Positions 2,823-60,676 of a stretch of 64,000 nt of DNA are shown piece by piece. The position numbers and the translations under genes were made by a program. The stretch spans positions 5,578 to 69,577 of the forward strand of contig JAVBJD010000001.1 in the NCBI GenBank assembly GCA_030756715.1. Reading direction: 5' to 3'. The DNA comes from Conexivisphaerales archaeon (GTDB lineage: Archaea; Thermoproteota; Nitrososphaeria; Conexivisphaerales; UBA164). Positions within the stretch are counted from its first letter, which is position 1, and each line of letters starts with the position of its first letter. Below the pieces are notes generated by a model, which was not told where the DNA came from, did not search any database, and saw nothing but the letters and a program-made list of their open reading frames with translations.

Positions 2823-3497
2823 TTAATAAAATCCTTTTAGCAGTTGCGGATAAAACAATTTAAACAGAATAAGAATTAAAAGGGAAATTATTGGAACGGT
2901 TATGTTGTCGTCTATAAATTTCTGTTTTTCAGCAAGAGTTCCAGCTAAAGCCGAGATTAGACCGCCATACCCCATTACCAAGCTAAACGGCGTTATGGAG
3001 GCAAGCATAGCTAAACTGCCTTCAACTCCTTTGTACCTTTTCTTAGAGACCAGTATTCTAACTATTCCGGTTATTCCATCTCCTATAGACATATAAATTG
3101 CAGGCAGAACCCCCAGCCATAAGTTTTTGTCAAAAAACCAGCCAATTAGGATTGAAAGTCCCCACATTATGGTAAAGTCTACTTCATAAAAATTATTTGT
3201 TTCTTGAAACCAGCTCATCATATTTTTCTGCCTTCTTTTGTATAAAAGGAGGAAAGTTAAAATCAAGCTTAAGATGAACGGAGTGACAGGCTCTCTGTAT
3301 ACAAAAGGAACAAAAACGGCTATAACCCCTCCTGCAAGTATATGTATTGTTTTCCTGCTGAGGTATCTCGCGGACACTTCGTCAAAGTTTTTGGATATCG
3401 CGTAACTGTAGACTTCCTTTGAAATTATTACAATAACCGATAGAACCCATATGATAAAAAGCAAAGTAACCAAAACGTCGTAAATGATATAATTCAC
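2823..3497 (-). CDS. Polytopic membrane protein, polyprenol (dolichol/phytol) kinase-like
   Basis: Multi-TM protein. C-terminal SIGDGITGIVR...KGVEGSLAMLA resembles the CTP-dependent polyprenol kinase / cytidylyltransferase family motif. Confidence 0.5.
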   Translation of the reverse strand: MNYIIYDVLVTLLFIIWVLSVIVIISKEVYSYAISKNFDEVSARYLSRKTIHILAGGVIAVFVPFVYREPVTPFILSLILTFLLLYKRRQKNMMSWFQETNNFYEVDFTIMWGLSILIGWFFDKNLWLGVLPAIYMSIGDGITGIVRILVSKKRYKGVEGSLAMLASITPFSLVMGYGGLISALAGTLAEKQKFIDDNITVPIISLLILILFKLFYPQLLKGFY

Positions 3498-3730
3498 AGA
3501 TAAGCTTGCGGCTTTAGCGTTAATAAATTTATCTTTACCAATGCTTTATAACTTAGATTTAAAAATTTCAACGCCAGTTATCACAGTATTTTGGCTAAAA
3601 ATAAATTATTGATCTTAACAAAAAGCTGAATTTATTAAAGGAGCTCAATTGTTTCACTGGCTTTTATGCATATTTGTTAATCGGCTATTTGAAACCTTTT
3701 TACTTTTTTAGAACAAAGATAAACTAGATT

Positions 3731-4681
3731 TCAATAAGCTTCGTTAGAAGGTTCAGCGAAAACCTTTCCGAGTTTGGGAATTTGACCTTCTTTGTAAAGA
3801 ACCAGCAATCTCTGTATTCTTTTCTTTACCGAAGGTGTAAAAACTAAAAGCTCAAACTTAGAAGGTATAAATCCGCTTCCTGTGCGCCAGCTGGGGACAA
3901 TACCTGAAACTTTCAAAAGAGCATTTATCAGCGGCTCAGCCCCAACTACCTTTGCTGCTGTTTCATCTGCAGCGTACTCAGATTCTCTTTTGATCAAAAG
4001 AGGGTTTAATATGTTTAGAAAGTTAAACAGCGTCCCGATCAGGGAAATCAGCGAAAACAAAAAGTTTTCATTGTCGTTGTTGGCTATATGGGCAAGTTCG
4101 TGCGTTATAGCAGCAGCCAGCTCATCTTTGCTAAAAGTCTCAAAAGCGCCTACTGAAATAGCTATATATGCTTTTGACCTGTTTGCATTGGTATATAGCT
4201 GAGGTTCTTCGGTATTTAGCATATAGACCTGTGGCTGGGGTATCTTTAACAGTTTTGATATTTCGTTCACAAGTTTTATTGTTTCTTGGTCTCTTAACGG
4301 TGTAAGAGGAGGCTTCCTGTGTGTAAATGTTATACCATAAAATAAGATTACTGCGCTAATTGAAACGCCCCAGAATATTGGGTCATGCTCAACCAACCAG
4401 AACCTCTTGAATATGCCAACGAGAAGGTTAACTCTAGCGAAAAGAATCGCCCTTGCAAAAACCATGAAATCTCCTACTATAAACTGCAGGTCTATAAAAA
4501 TGTAAGGCATTAAAGAGAACAGAGAAAATGACATCAGAAGCTTTCCCGTAAAAGACTTTTTGTCCTTTAAGAATAAAAAGCTCAGCAAACCCATTATTGA
4601 TATTAAAATGCTGAGCTTGATTATCAGCGGCCTTATGATTATCAGATAACCAAATATTTTTACAAAAGTTATTAGGGTCAA
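3731..4681 (-). CDS. Membrane zinc metalloprotease, BlaR1/HtpX-like (M56/M48)
   Basis: N-terminal TM helices and an HELAHIANND (HExxH) motif. Separated by one base from the upstream BlaI-like repressor gene. Confidence 0.7.
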   Translation of the reverse strand: MTLITFVKIFGYLIIIRPLIIKLSILISIMGLLSFLFLKDKKSFTGKLLMSFSLFSLMPYIFIDLQFIVGDFMVFARAILFARVNLLVGIFKRFWLVEHDPIFWGVSISAVILFYGITFTHRKPPLTPLRDQETIKLVNEISKLLKIPQPQVYMLNTEEPQLYTNANRSKAYIAISVGAFETFSKDELAAAITHELAHIANNDNENFLFSLISLIGTLFNFLNILNPLLIKRESEYAADETAAKVVGAEPLINALLKVSGIVPSWRTGSGFIPSKFELLVFTPSVKKRIQRLLVLYKEGQIPKLGKVFAEPSNEAY

Positions 4682-8999: not shown

Positions 9000-9803
9000 A
9001 TGGCCGCTCAGCCTTTGAGCGGGATCTCGATCAAGAGAGACAAGCTGGAGTCTAATCCTAGAGGGGTTCAGCTTGCGTTCGAGACGTTTTTGAATTCCGG
9101 TCTTAACGTTCTTGATTTGAGGGATTCTTGGATCAAGTTAGAAAAATTCGAGTCTTTCCTTAAACCGCTCCGGGAAAATAAAAACATAATTGTTTTAGCC
9201 CGGTTCAGTGGGATATACCCGAGCTACGAAAACATTATTCACCAAGCATCGCTTTTGAAAAACGTTTTGGGAAGGCCTGCAGATGTATTTGAAATCAAGA
9301 TGCCAAACTTTTTTGTAAGTTTAAAAGAAACGTTAAGAGGGTTTAAAAAAGCGCTCAATGAAGGTATAATAAACAGCTTTGGATTGATTGGATGGAGGGC
9401 CAATTATATTAAAGAAATATATCAGGAGGATATTTTTGAGAAACTTCAGCATGTTAAAGTTGACTTTAACGCTTTGACAAAAAACAATCAGCGCGTTGTT
9501 AAAAAACTACAGAACCTTAAGATAAACGTCTTTTCTGCTTCGCCTTTAGGAGGAGGAATATTAACTGAAAGGGGTTATATGTCTTTTAAAAACAGGATAA
9601 TTTACGGTTGCACTTTAAACAGGCTAAAGAAACTCTCTGAAGAAAAGGGGTCGAGCATTTCTGAGATAGCGCTTTCTTTACTTAACTTCTTTAAGGTATC
9701 TTACGCACCCTCAATAAGCGAACCTTTGCATGTTAAAGGGATTTTAAAAAGCAAGGAAATAAAACTCAACGAAGAAGACCTGAGAACCGTTTTTAATTTA
9801 TAA
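9000..9803 (+). CDS. Aldo/keto reductase-like protein (divergent)
   Basis: The C-terminal half has the AKR-like SASPLGGGILTERG motif. The N-terminal half is poorly conserved, so activity is uncertain. Confidence 0.4.
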   Translation: MAAQPLSGISIKRDKLESNPRGVQLAFETFLNSGLNVLDLRDSWIKLEKFESFLKPLRENKNIIVLARFSGIYPSYENIIHQASLLKNVLGRPADVFEIKMPNFFVSLKETLRGFKKALNEGIINSFGLIGWRANYIKEIYQEDIFEKLQHVKVDFNALTKNNQRVVKKLQNLKINVFSASPLGGGILTERGYMSFKNRIIYGCTLNRLKKLSEEKGSSISEIALSLLNFFKVSYAPSISEPLHVKGILKSKEIKLNEEDLRTVFNL

Positions 9804-21602: not shown

Positions 21603-22195
<593 letters not shown>

Positions 22196-22462
22196 CTTTG
22201 AACTTTTGTTAAAGATTAAACAGAATTATACGTTCATAATGAAGATTATTGCTAGCTCATTTACAAAGCAGCTTTTACATGCAGAACACATTCCAGACAC
22301 TAATGGCTCAAGTTAACCAAGATCGCACATAGTTTTATAAAACTGAAAGCGATGAAGCAATGAGGTAGTTTCAAGGAATATTGAATAAAAATCCGACTGT
22401 TCGTTGTTAAAATTATGTAATAGCTTTTAAATTAGGTTTATAATATTTAAACTATAGAGATA

Positions 22463-47976: not shown

Positions 47977-49569
47977 TTATACAAGAGGCCCTTTAAGCTT
48001 AAGATTTATACTTTTGTAGCTTCTCAAGAAACTCAACCTGTTTTCATAAAACTCCCTGATGTTTTCAACATCATAAATTAGCATGGCAAGCCTTTCTAGA
48101 CCCATACCCCAGGCTAAAACAGGGCCATCGTACCCTAAAGGTTTTGTGACTTCAGGCCTGAAAATTCCCATGCCACAAAGTTCAATCCAATCGTTAAGCT
48201 TTTCAGAATAAATCATGGACTGCATAGAGGGTTCGGTATAAGGAAAGAATGTAGGCCAGAACTTTACTTTTTCAAAACCAAGCTTTTTATAGAAAGCCGT
48301 AAGGAACCCCATAAGCCTTCTTATGCTTGCTCCTTCTTCAATAACTATAGCGTCAAGCTGATGAAGCTCAACTAGGTGCTTAAAATCTGGCTTTTCATTT
48401 CTAAAAACTCTTCCTACTGTAAATATTCTGCCACTCATACCTCTGTAAATAGCTTCTGAAGTGATTGTAGTTGTATGAGTTCTCAGCAAAGCTTTCCAAG
48501 CTGCTTTTTGATCCCAGACATACCCCCACCCTGTTGAACCTGTGATCCAGCCGTTTTCATGGACGCTCTTAACTTTATTTACAATGTCGGTGTCCTTCTC
48601 CTCTATCGTAATATCTTTTAAATAAAAAGTATCATGCATATCCCTAGCTGGATGATCTTGGGGAGTAAAAAGGACGTCAAAGTTCCAGAAAGAAGACCTT
48701 ATAACGGGACCTTCGATCTCCGTAAAACCAAGGCTTTCCATTATTTCTTTTATAAGGCTTATAAGTTCAGATAAAGGGTGAATCCTTGCAGGAAATGCTG
48801 CAGGTACCGGCTGTGAAAGATCTATTTCAGAAAATTTTAATTCCTGCCACTTACCGCTGGCCAAAATGCCTGAAGTTAATAGCGTAATTTCTTCGCTTTC
48901 AAGAATTTTGGGGTCTATCTTTGCGCCTTCAGCTACTTTAACCTTAGTTTCCTTTACTATTGATAACCTAACGAACCTTGGCCTTTTTTTAAGTTCTTCT
49001 AGTTCTGCTATCTCTTCGCTGTTTAAATCTTCTATACAAATGGGTCCACTGGAGATTTTTTCCAAAATCTTGTATACGTCTGTCGTATTTAATTGCTTAT
49101 CTGAGACTGGAAATATCAGATTCTGGGAAATTTTTACCAGACCCTTTTTAATTGCGATTCCAAGTGCAACTCCAGCTTCATTGCCAAGAAGTCTTTTTGC
49201 TTCGCTAATGTCAAGCTTCCCTTTTTTTACGGCTTCGTTTACTAACTTTATTTCTGGTGCTCCTTCTGCAATAGCTTTTTTCCCATTTTCGTCAAGTTCT
49301 ACGATTTGTTTTTCGTCCACTTTGACCTCAACGAGCTTTTTTTCCTTAAGCCACTCTACGACCCTTCTTGCCTGATCCATTGAGAGGCCAGCGTCCTGAG
49401 CTATTTCTTCTAACTTGCTTTCCCCTAGTTTTAATAACGATTTAAGAAACTTTTTTTCCAGCGGATGTAAAGCTACTTGCCCCATCTTTCTAAGATCTTT
49501 TACTGCATCAATATAAAGGTTAGGTTTTATCCTCACAGAAACGTTATTAATATTTGGCCCATAATACAT
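47977..49569 (-). CDS. pheS: Phenylalanyl-tRNA synthetase alpha subunit
   Basis: N-terminal wH repeats and a class II core (HPARDMHDTFY, FRNEKPD, GMGLERLAML). The true start may be ATG 49485 (MGQVALHPLEKK). Confidence 0.9.
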   Translation of the reverse strand: MYYGPNINNVSVRIKPNLYIDAVKDLRKMGQVALHPLEKKFLKSLLKLGESKLEEIAQDAGLSMDQARRVVEWLKEKKLVEVKVDEKQIVELDENGKKAIAEGAPEIKLVNEAVKKGKLDISEAKRLLGNEAGVALGIAIKKGLVKISQNLIFPVSDKQLNTTDVYKILEKISSGPICIEDLNSEEIAELEELKKRPRFVRLSIVKETKVKVAEGAKIDPKILESEEITLLTSGILASGKWQELKFSEIDLSQPVPAAFPARIHPLSELISLIKEIMESLGFTEIEGPVIRSSFWNFDVLFTPQDHPARDMHDTFYLKDITIEEKDTDIVNKVKSVHENGWITGSTGWGYVWDQKAAWKALLRTHTTTITSEAIYRGMSGRIFTVGRVFRNEKPDFKHLVELHQLDAIVIEEGASIRRLMGFLTAFYKKLGFEKVKFWPTFFPYTEPSMQSMIYSEKLNDWIELCGMGIFRPEVTKPLGYDGPVLAWGMGLERLAMLIYDVENIREFYENRLSFLRSYKSINLKLKGPLV

Positions 49570-49834
49570 TGGTCATATGTTGAAAAAATCGCATAATTTT
49601 CTGGTTTTGAAAATCATGAGTTTACTTACTGTCCCCTATCCTCCTTTTAAGGCGAAGTTCCCGGGGTCTCGAGGGTTACTCTCCTTTGACAGGAGCTACT
49701 GCGTTATGCAAAACGATGTATGAAGACCAGGCTTCATTTTTCCTGTTTATCAGCTGCTGGACGTTCGCTGAACCTAACAGATTTTTGTATTTTTCGTATA
49801 TCATTCTGGCTGTCCTTTCAAAGTCTATTTTCTT

Positions 49835-50065
49835 ACCAGAAAAGAACTGTTCTATACTCATGTAGTTCAGCTCGTTGAAAGCTTCCGCGAAGGCATCCCC
49901 GAGCTTTTTTGGCTTGTGCCCCGTGCTTCCTTATGGTAAAAGGCGCACTTTGTTAGTCCTTCTGTTGATGGACTTTACTTTAATAACCTGTTTTTCGGTG
50001 ACAGCCGGTATAGCCTGAGAAGTCGGCTCAGGCGCACCACCAATACCAATTAACCGGCCGTCCCC
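49835..50065 (-). ncRNA. GC-rich structured RNA of unresolved class (SRP-Alu-like 5' part)
   Basis: GC-rich island in an AT-rich genome. 9 bp helix 50062-50054/50008-50000 with a strand-diagnostic G-U. Hairpins at 50033-50027/50019-50013, 49974-49970/49959-49955, 49948-49945/49926-49923 and 49905-49900/49874-49869. The TTATAA box is centred about 27 nt upstream. The 3' end is uncertain. Confidence 0.45.
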
Positions 50066-50089
50066 ATGAAAAAGAGAACTCAAAAGCAC

Positions 50090-50095
50090 TTATAA
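50090..50095 (-). promoter_or_regulatory. TATA box candidate for the GC-rich RNA
   Basis: TTATAA centred about 27 nt upstream of the first G of GGGGACGGCCGG (50065), which is the archaeal TATA-to-start spacing. Confidence 0.4.
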
Positions 50096-50364
50096 CACTT
50101 GACGAGCTTTATCCCGTCTTAAAAAATGCGAGGTTTTCACTAACTGTAAATTCCTTATTCAAAAAATGTAAAAGATTTTACAGATAAAATTACTTAAAGA
50201 ATTTTAAGATTAACTCTTAGAGAGGGGGTTTATCCTTCTCGTGATTTATGTGTGCTTTAAAAAATTAACAGTAACAGGATAATGTTTTTGCTAGATTTCC
50301 ATAATAATATACGATATAAATTCATTTTTAATAAGCGCACTTAACATCTCAAAACACCAAAAAT

Positions 50365-51483
50365 TTATACAGGTCTTTTTAAAACCAAAGAATCGCCATT
50401 CTTCAGCAAAGCTTTTGCTTCGTTCATGGCAGCACTCCTTTTAGCTTGATGATCTTCTATAAAATTGCTTACGAGCCCGTATGCTTCGTTTTTGCATCCT
50501 CCGCACATCCTTACACCTTTTTTGCACTCTTTATAGACGTTTTTTATTTGCATGTCGTCCTTTGCAAAGTAAATATAAAGGTCGAAGACGGGGCATTTTT
50601 CGGGTTCCCCGCCGAGTTCCTTTTGTTCTTTAATCGTTGCACGCCCTCCAGTAAAAGCATTCATTATTTTTTGTTTTAGTTCTTCTTTTTTATCAGAAAG
50701 CGTTATCATAGATTGAGGTGTTCTCTTAGACATCTTGTCGTCTCCTGTCAGAGATCTAACAAGTTTATGGTATATCGCCGAAGGCGGTATAAGTTGTAGA
50801 TCTTCTTTGTGTTTAGCAGCAAGATCTCTGGCAAGCCTCAAATGCGGATCCTGATCCGCACCTACAGGAACAAGAACCGGCTTGGGTCCGTTAAAGGGTT
50901 TAGTTTCCGGTAAAAATATGTCACCTGCTTGGACCAGAGCTGCGAAATAGAGGGAAATTTTCCTTTCGCCGTATATGTCAACTAACATGTTAAAGGTTAC
51001 ATCATCAGAAAATATAAAAGCAAGATCAGAAACGGCAAGCGCTGAAGATTGTTTGTATGTAACCGCCCTTTCTGGATCCATTCCCAGAGCTATCATATCC
51101 GCAACGTTGTATATGGCAATTTCATCGCTCTTATCCAAGCTCTGCCCGTTATCAACATAAGCTTCTAGATCTGCTATTGAATAAAAGAGGAACGCATTTG
51201 AGTACTTTTTTTGAAAATATATCATCTGCTCAGCGGTTATCATACTTCCAATGTGAAATATTCCGCTTGGTTTTATACCTGAAAGTATTGCTACTACTTT
51301 TCCGGATTTAGCTTCAGAAAGAAATTTGTCCAGATCTCTGTGCCCAACCAACATGCCTCTTCTATAATATTTATTATCGTTGAGGTCTTCGAAAGTCTCA
51401 TCTAAGGGCGTTATCCCAAATTCTTGAATTAACTTAGAGTAGTCCTTTATACCAAAATCTCCCCATGGGTTTAATGTACTCAA
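50365..51483 (-). CDS. trpS: Tryptophanyl-tRNA synthetase with a C-terminal four-Cys motif
   Basis: Class I motifs (GIFHIGS in the HIGH position, KMSKR as KMSKS). C-x22-C-x6-C-x2-C at 50494-50595. Confidence 0.9.
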   Translation of the reverse strand: MSTLNPWGDFGIKDYSKLIQEFGITPLDETFEDLNDNKYYRRGMLVGHRDLDKFLSEAKSGKVVAILSGIKPSGIFHIGSMITAEQMIYFQKKYSNAFLFYSIADLEAYVDNGQSLDKSDEIAIYNVADMIALGMDPERAVTYKQSSALAVSDLAFIFSDDVTFNMLVDIYGERKISLYFAALVQAGDIFLPETKPFNGPKPVLVPVGADQDPHLRLARDLAAKHKEDLQLIPPSAIYHKLVRSLTGDDKMSKRTPQSMITLSDKKEELKQKIMNAFTGGRATIKEQKELGGEPEKCPVFDLYIYFAKDDMQIKNVYKECKKGVRMCGGCKNEAYGLVSNFIEDHQAKRSAAMNEAKALLKNGDSLVLKRPV

Positions 51484-60599: not shown

Positions 60600-60601
60600 A
60601 G

Positions 60602-60676
60602 TGGGCCGGGCCGGATTCGAACCGGCGACCTCCGCCGCGTCAAGGCGGTGTGCTGACCAAGCTACACCACCGGCCC
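60602..60676 (-). tRNA. tRNA-Val (GAC)
   Basis: GGGCCGG-UG-GUGU-AGCUUGGUCA-GCAC-A-CCGCC-UUGACGC-GGCGG-AGGUC-GCCGG-UUCGAAU-CCGGC-CCGGCCC-A. Confidence 0.9.

Follow-up and report, generated by a model that had tools for sequence, protein, structure and literature searches.

The genes trpS and pheS (alpha subunit) follow one another on the minus strand of the 64,000-nt stretch of contig JAVBJD010000001.1 analysed here (Conexivisphaerales archaeon, assembly GCA_030756715.1; hereafter the window), and the spacer between them (50364-49570) is read below on that strand. In minus-strand order it contains a TTATAA box, the sequence ATGGGGACGGCCGG starting at 50067, a set of nested helices, a 52-codon open reading frame (ORF; 50089-49931) and, in the same frame beyond a single TAA, a 61-codon ORF (Table 1). 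A preliminary description of positions 49835-50100 had seen there a GC-rich structured RNA with its own TATA box, possibly a very divergent signal recognition particle (SRP) RNA, something else, or the long leader of a small protein. Our comparison with related genomes and elements identifies the segment 49629-50145 as a decayed, internally deleted copy of a tnpB-only element of the IS200/IS605 family, of which the described interval forms the left two thirds. Its tnpB remnant begins with a 73-nt stem-loop that is shared with intact members of the same TnpB clade.

The extra DNA in the spacer was delimited within a set of 80 pheS loci from related Nitrososphaeria and Thaumarchaeota assemblies, many of them from hot springs. 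The gap between trpS and pheS is shorter than 50 nt in most near relatives and about 280 nt in the closest one (L001; PheS 92% identical). Positions 1-219 and 737-793 of the window's spacer correspond by blastn to 3716-3935 and 3936-3992 of this relative, and because these flanks are contiguous there, the 517 nt between them in the window represent additional DNA. Neither L001 nor any other relative in which trpS and pheS are arranged in this way has the segment, and it occurs at 99.7-99.9% identity in two further assemblies of the same species. The empty site reads TTAC directly followed by TATGTAAAC, the occupied site TTAC, the 517 nt and TAAGTAAAC, and the insertion shows no target duplication. 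The left end follows the same tetranucleotide in each of the four Nitrososphaeria copies (the window copy, L083, L084 and L085) and in many metagenome copies. IS200/IS605 elements excise seamlessly, and the site in L001 may therefore represent the state either before insertion or after excision.

The surroundings of the insertion vary among relatives. The AT-rich spacer of about 280 nt (25-30% GC; window 50146-50364 plus 49570-49628; L001 3716-3992) is common to the window and L001, and is absent from L002, L003, L006 and L009-L012, where fewer than 50 nt separate the two genes. In L007 (PheS 69% identical), a different tnpB remnant consisting of the C-terminal part and the right end occupies the same spacer immediately before pheS (3472-4001). 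Its sister genome L004 has trpS inverted and located elsewhere, with a remnant at 9140-9343 (-) about 1.1 kb upstream of it. The trpS-pheS spacer seems to have been hit by insertion or rearrangement repeatedly.

Sequence comparison tied the inserted segment to tnpB at both of its ends. Translation through the in-frame TAA matched 24 database proteins (best E=3e-35, 72% identity), several of them named 'RNA-guided endonuclease TnpB family protein, partial'. One of these proteins (P0002) is followed on its contig by a 312-aa ORF with the Pfam domains OrfB_IS605 and Cas12f1-like_TNB, and the two together make up a near-full-length tnpB element (L085). The window segment aligns to 2913-3351 and 4307-4404 of L085, the two ends of an element of about 1.5 kb, a size that suggests ISC1476 as a candidate ISfinder entry for the family. 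At the other side of the remnant, window positions 49657-49724 correspond to the 3'-terminal parts of tnpB genes or remnants from L007 and L004 (...HPDLNGALNI..., then GAGTAACCCTCGAGACC...GGGAAC). The repaired window translation gave a weak match to the NCBIfam profile guided_TnpB (E=0.005, residues 41-118), and the intact reference TnpB of the clade (L118, 455 aa), with which it is collinear, scores 130.5 bits at a cutoff of 100. Intact relatives that are 72-75% identical to L118 and annotated as TnpB or IS605 OrfB are found on the Saccharolobus solfataricus (S. solfataricus) plasmid pMGB1 and in the Acidianus two-tailed virus.

Relative to L085, the window copy lacks about 955 nt of tnpB, and its 5' structure and right end are 442 nt apart, as against 1394-1450 nt in some 60 intact copies. 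About 128 of the approximately 455 tnpB codons are left, and these are further disrupted by a 1-nt deletion relative to homologues near 50050, after MGTAG, and by an in-frame TAA (49933-49931) where homologues encode Lys. A second copy with the same deletion junction (L083; 79% identical overall) lies on a contig of assembly GCA_049966355.1 other than the one with the window copy, where it (2135-2801) adjoins a gene pair of HEPN and nucleotidyltransferase (MNT) type upstream of the rpl3 ribosomal-protein operon. No second copy of the insert was found by blastn and tblastn within the window. The succession of events was an insertion on the minus strand after TTAC, loss of the roughly 955 nt through microhomology, and finally the frameshift, the stop codon and the decay of the terminal hairpins.

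The 61-codon ORF finds its explanation in the same deletion. It begins at an internal ATG of the tnpB remnant and represents TnpB residues ~68-115 joined in frame to the last 13 residues of the protein, with a C-terminus (IVLHNAVAPVKGE) resembling that of L118 (...FIVDHNRVAPVKGA). Because the frame is open, starts with ATG and carries the label hypothetical protein (P0004) in public assemblies, it could be taken for a genuine small-protein gene with the upstream structure as its leader, as the preliminary description had considered. However, it has no family match of its own and no separate promoter, the equivalent ORF of L083 stops after 21 codons, and conservation across diverged copies was not seen. 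Pfam searches with the 61-aa and 52-aa ORFs yielded no match, and the homology emerged only on reading through the in-frame stop. We regard a genuine gene here as most improbable; the annotated 61-aa protein is a pseudogene fragment of tnpB. The idea of a structured leader retains its value for the first 73 nt, and the remainder of the proposed leader is tnpB coding remnant.

Both ends of the window copy are homologous to those of intact members in the alignments, and a right-end profile matches window positions 49700-49633. Intact copies have similar subterminal hairpins at their two ends (GCCTCGCC-CTTCAG-GGCGGGG on the left, CCGCC-ATTCAT-GGCGG on the right). Folded as DNA, the left-end hairpin reaches -7.4 kcal/mol in L084 and -7.9 kcal/mol in L085 and is unfolded in the window (z=-0.05); the right-end hairpin of L004 reaches -11.5 kcal/mol (z=-3.6) and that of the window is again unfolded (z=+1.4). 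The terminal hairpins of L083 likewise no longer fold. Since these hairpins are needed for recognition by TnpA, the window copy was classed as a fossil and not as an active member of the family; it has lost the capacity both to move and to produce TnpB, and neither it nor L083 can probably be mobilised any more. TnpB elements carry in their 3' region the sequence for the 3' portion of the omega-RNA scaffold (PMC8612924, PMC10055086), and by homology to intact copies the last 89 nt of the window element would be a putative omega-RNA-encoding region.

These features place the element close to the IS1341 group (tnpB-only) of IS200/IS605, whose members encode the RNA-guided nuclease TnpB and its 3' omega-RNA. 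The two have in common the homology to TnpB, which extends to the last 13 codons, a fixed tetranucleotide (TTAC) 5' of the insertion with no duplication of the target, subterminal hairpins that resemble each other at the two ends of intact copies, and a conserved 3' module extending to the right end. It differs from that group in the loss of about 955 nt of tnpB, the frameshift, the stop codon and the unfolded end hairpins of the window copy, and also in the covarying stem-loop formed by the 5' extension of this clade. The window copy also resembles the PATE/MITE-like derivatives of IS200/IS605 elements (Meers et al., PMC10055086): it is protein-less, keeps both ends together with the omega-RNA-encoding 3' part, and is found as the same derivative twice in one genome, in the window and as L083 (the only two copies known), while still smaller versions of about 250 nt exist in related metagenomes. 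Unlike those derivatives, the copies described here have also kept the 5' stem-loop along with the promoter of tnpB.

The stem-loop comprises an outer helix (P1), a junction and an inner hairpin (P3). Its core, in which the helix GACGGCCGG/CCGGCUGUC surrounds the hairpin GCCUGAG-CCGACUU-CUCAGGC (50033-50013), had been recognised in the preliminary description together with the minus-strand orientation and the TATA box, and all three observations were upheld. In the window, the structure folds at -32.9 kcal/mol (z=-2.87), a value matched by none of 200 shuffles, and homologues extend the outer helix to 14 columns. The TTATAA box, 28 nt upstream of ATGGGGACGGCCGG (50067-50054), is the tnpB promoter element, and every aligned copy has TTTATAA or TTTAAAAA about 28-30 nt before its start codon.

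A metagenome scan with an alignment of the N-terminal protein region recovered at least 80 further loci, and many more copies exist. The structure was examined in 68 distinct copies among the matches listed, aligned from the start codon to +77. In this alignment, 94.8% of the cells can pair, compared with 49-62% when the partners are slid against each other, and 14 of the 21 base pairs have changed on both sides; the observed values were reached by none of 500 shuffles. RNAalifold independently predicted the same P1/P3 fold. Compensatory changes in P3 interconvert GCCUGAG/CUCAGGC, GCGGGAG/CUCCCGC and GCGGGGG/CCCCCGC around a loop with the consensus CCGAYUY, and a further one exchanges CUCGG/CCGAG for CUCUGG/CCAGAG. 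Because G.U cells (112) exceed A.C cells (61), the sense strand is indicated as the one that folds. No consistent covariation for an additional hairpin (P2) or a pseudoknot was apparent by eye in the 20-nt junction.

The stem-loop lies in the reading frame of tnpB, with a start codon (ATG or GTG) occupying P1 columns 1-3 in 66 of the 68 copies, but what is conserved in it is the nucleotide structure and not the peptide. In the 54 copies with an intact frame, the third-position excess ratio is 0.27-2.0 over codons 1-27, which amounts to none, and 2-10 from codon 28 on, and the NCBIfam TnpB profile starts at about residue 38 of L118. The stem-loop therefore represents an element at the level of nucleotides that precedes the TnpB core in the same frame, formed by a 5' extension of about 36 codons that this clade carries. 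A covariance model (R1) that was based solely on 54 copies of Sulfolobales type, with the window's lineage left out, matched window positions 49990-50067(-) with 40.5 bits (E=4.4e-9), its sole match in the 64 kb, and it also matched S. solfataricus pMGB1 (87 bits) and Acidianus two-tailed virus 2 (ATV2; 81 bits). Copies of the stem-loop occur in Sulfolobales, Nitrososphaeria, Thermocladium, Caldivirga and Marsarchaeota assemblies and in an Acidianus two-tailed virus; those at 592-676 of L168 (ATV2, where the loop carries a 3-nt insertion) and 601-682 of L166 (S. solfataricus pMGB1) belong to intact copies of the tnpB family, in a virus and a plasmid from cultured Sulfolobales. No description of the 5' stem-loop of this TnpB clade was found in the literature searched. 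We put the probability of this overall explanation, a TnpB fossil bearing a family-wide 5' stem-loop, at about 0.85.

The remainder of the interval behaves differently. Neither the closing helix ACCGAAAA/UUUUCUGGU nor the three additional hairpins of the preliminary description were recovered: in 43 homologues, 49994-49835 has no consensus structure (-2.5 kcal/mol) and no covarying pair, although the single window sequence folds at z=-2.4. Its substitutions follow the third-codon-position pattern of coding DNA, and the region downstream of the stem-loop is former tnpB coding sequence. Most of the interval shows the protein-like conservation that the preliminary description had named as evidence against an RNA, and only the first 73 transcribed nucleotides of the proposed stand-alone RNA gene of about 230 nt are conserved in structure. 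The GC-rich island itself is modest, with a GC fraction of 0.43-0.50 that exceeds the rest of the spacer (0.25-0.30), is similar to that of adjoining genes and stays far below that of the tRNAs (0.72-0.77).

A very divergent archaeal SRP RNA, or another structured housekeeping RNA, had been suggested by local resemblances to known SRP RNAs (GGUGGUGCGCCUGAG...; GGAAGCA), and GC-rich helices in an AT-rich genome are indeed a trait shared with archaeal SRP RNA (Rfam Archaea_SRP). The Rfam scan proposed in the preliminary description was run on the whole window at gathering thresholds and on 49300-50500 at E<=10. Two tRNAs were the sole matches at gathering score, and around the element only chance-level matches appeared, with no SRP, RNase P or omega/sotRNA family among them. 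The window feature matches no covariance model of SRP RNA, lacks its helix 5/8 architecture, and has GGAAGCA within tnpB coding sequence (codons for LLP*GST). Moreover, an RNA of this kind would have to reside in a mobile element that is missing from the nearest relative and duplicated elsewhere in the genome, with structure conserved in only 73 of about 230 nt. The insertion polymorphism and the TnpB homology already refute SRP RNA, and the wider housekeeping reading has a negligible chance of being correct. The haloarchaeal sotRNAs or omega-RNAs (Rfam RF02656/RF02657; PMC4615843) are also non-coding RNAs from archaeal tnpB genes, mostly from the 3' end; unlike them, the window region has no Rfam match.

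The position of the fossil might nevertheless suggest that the host has taken over the element or its stem-loop RNA, as a regulatory RNA or leader of pheS or as an independent small RNA. The element lies 60-93 nt ahead of pheS and is read in the same direction, its TATA box looks intact, the stem-loop has survived in better condition than the terminal hairpins, and the element is nearly identical in the two other assemblies of the species. However, it is absent from L001 and all other relatives, its paralogue sits in an unrelated place between the HEPN/MNT genes and rpl3, and an AT-rich, promoter-like sequence would have been kept for pheS downstream of the insertion. The fossil pair likewise reveals no added constraint, as the window and L083 are 82% identical in the stem-loop and 79% overall, and an identical run of 27 nt is within expectation. 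Given the absence from the nearest relative, the decayed ends, the broken ORF and the lack of added conservation between the paralogues, the window stem-loop is a relic that likely has no function in the host, and takeover is very improbable.

Table 1. Features of the trpS-pheS spacer, its flanking genes and related mini-elements. Coordinates are window positions unless a locus is named.
Feature	Position	Strand	Evidence or remarks
trpS (flank)	50365..51483	minus	Pfam tRNA-synt_1b, 3.4e-40
TTAC target / transposon-adjacent motif, directly 5' of left end	50146..50149	minus	TTAC before conserved left ends
Whole inserted element: 517-nt internally deleted tnpB-only IS200/IS605-family copy	49629..50145	minus	blastn vs L001, L085
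Decayed subterminal hairpin of the left end (window CCTCGCATTTTTTAAGACGGG; consensus in the family GCCTCGCCCTTCAGGGCGGGG)	50112..50134	minus	alignment with relatives
TATA box of tnpB promoter (TTATAA)	50090..50095	minus	TTTATAA/TTTAAAAA conserved at same distance
5' stem-loop, 73 nt	49995..50067	minus	covariation, fold, covariance model
P1, includes ATG	50067-50054 with 50008-49995		14 bp in family; 12/14 pairs form in window
Junction of 5' stem-loop (20 nt)	50053-50034		
P3 hairpin, loop CCGACUU	50033-50027 with 50019-50013		7/7 pairs form in window
tnpB N-terminal pseudogene, ~115 codons	49718..50067	minus	homology of repaired translation; third-codon-position excess from codon 28
61-aa ORF: internal ATG of tnpB remnant, in-frame fusion to last 13 tnpB codons	49676..49861	minus	sequence comparison
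Deletion junction, TTCATAC microhomology	49718..49724	minus	blastn vs L085: 5' block ends 3351, 3' block starts 4307, overlap TCATA
3' module: tnpB end and right end; decayed right-end hairpin 49655-49640	49629..49717	minus	alignment with L085, L007, L004, L083
pheS alpha subunit (flank)	47977..49569	minus	Pfam tRNA-synt_2d, 5.6e-77
Mini-element, protein-less	L148 ~138-385	minus	flanks of full-length copies
Mini-element, protein-less	L125 ~1035-1300	minus	flanks of full-length copies
Mini-element, protein-less	L092 ~2290-2544	plus	flanks of full-length copies
Mini-element, protein-less	L150 2050-2353	minus	flanks of full-length copies

The start of pheS is ambiguous within 49485-49569, with candidate starts at ATG 49569 (530 aa), GTG 49536 and 49485; public annotations give 519 aa (GTG at 49536) or 502 aa (49485), and alignments to relatives start at residues 14-28. 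The two tRNAs matched by Rfam are tRNA-Arg(CCG) at 22121-22196 and tRNA-Val(GAC) at 60601-60676, with 72-77% GC compared with about 40% for the genome. This GC content and the hot-spring sources of related assemblies fit a thermophilic host.

In intact elements, the stem-loop might act in cis on the RNA, forming the very start of a leaderless tnpB message, and we give this proposal a little less than an even chance. Judged from archaeal promoter geometry, transcription would start at or next to the AUG, so that P1 would pair the extreme 5' end of the message; the stem-loop would then hide the start codon, holding TnpB translation low, and/or shield the 5' end from decay. The part of the proposal that concerns translation is prompted by the stem-loop at the 5' end of the IS200 tnpA mRNA, which sequesters the ribosome-binding site and represses translation 20-fold (PMC5435999). 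Both are structured 5' ends of mRNAs from the IS200/IS605 family that cover the region of translation start. However, the IS200 structure is bacterial, belongs to tnpA and not to tnpB, covers a Shine-Dalgarno sequence in a leadered mRNA and has no sequence or structural homology to the tnpB stem-loop; repression by the latter is suggested by analogy.

Several observations weigh against such control of translation. The transcription start and the leaderless status derive from promoter spacing only, and the annotated ATG of the ATV2 copy lies 3 nt upstream of P1 and not inside it. The nucleotides of the junction and the loop are conserved at all codon positions, beyond what a passive occluding hairpin would need. 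Finally, the stem-loop is kept in at least four protein-less mini-elements (Table 1), where control of translation would be pointless. In these, the left-end hairpin, the TATA box and P1/P3 are fused directly to a 3' omega-RNA/right-end module of 95-180 nt, and one of them (L148), of about 248 nt, looks fully intact.

The last two of these observations suggest instead that the stem-loop of intact elements is a cis-acting part of the transposon itself, with the window copy still a fossil; we consider this possible, although on balance unlikely. It might extend the left-end signal on the single-stranded top DNA strand during 'peel and paste' transposition by TnpA, or it might be a non-coding RNA module needed to make or stabilise a promoter-driven omega-RNA. 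The promoter and P1/P3 have been kept by three independent deletion classes (window and L083; L148, L125 and L092; L150), in two of which the junction falls at the 3' foot of P1, fused to the 3' module of about 95-180 nt, and the bases of the loop and junction are conserved beyond the needs of pairing. The G.U excess suits the top DNA strand as well as an RNA, and model R1 did not find the stem-loop in the tnpA+tnpB relative ISSis2. However, hairpins of the TnpA type are already accounted for by the similar subterminal hairpins of the left and right ends, no covarying pairs link the 5' stem-loop with the 3' omega-RNA module in 58 full-length elements, and stable hairpins can promote deletions at their own foot, which would explain the positions of the junctions without selection. 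The closest hint in the literature is a report of circular RNAs at the 5' end of the ISC1316 transposase genes of S. solfataricus, also members of IS200/IS605 (PMC12558985), but these concern a different insertion sequence and serve as a lead only.

With these results, the trpS-pheS locus drops out as a candidate for a new RNA class and becomes an ordinary transposon fossil. Its stem-loop may still point to something of wider interest, since a somewhat speculative reading, which we hold with less than even confidence by a clear distance, is that the 73 nt represent a hitherto undescribed functional cis module of an archaeal TnpB transposon clade. If so, such a module might be needed for single-stranded-DNA transposition, or for making or stabilising a promoter-driven guide RNA, and would add a third conserved part to the system of TnpB, omega-RNA and transposon ends. 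Little is known of how TnpB systems, now being developed into compact genome editors, are regulated in nature, and a conserved 5' cis element would bear on how TnpB expression, omega-RNA production or mobility is controlled.

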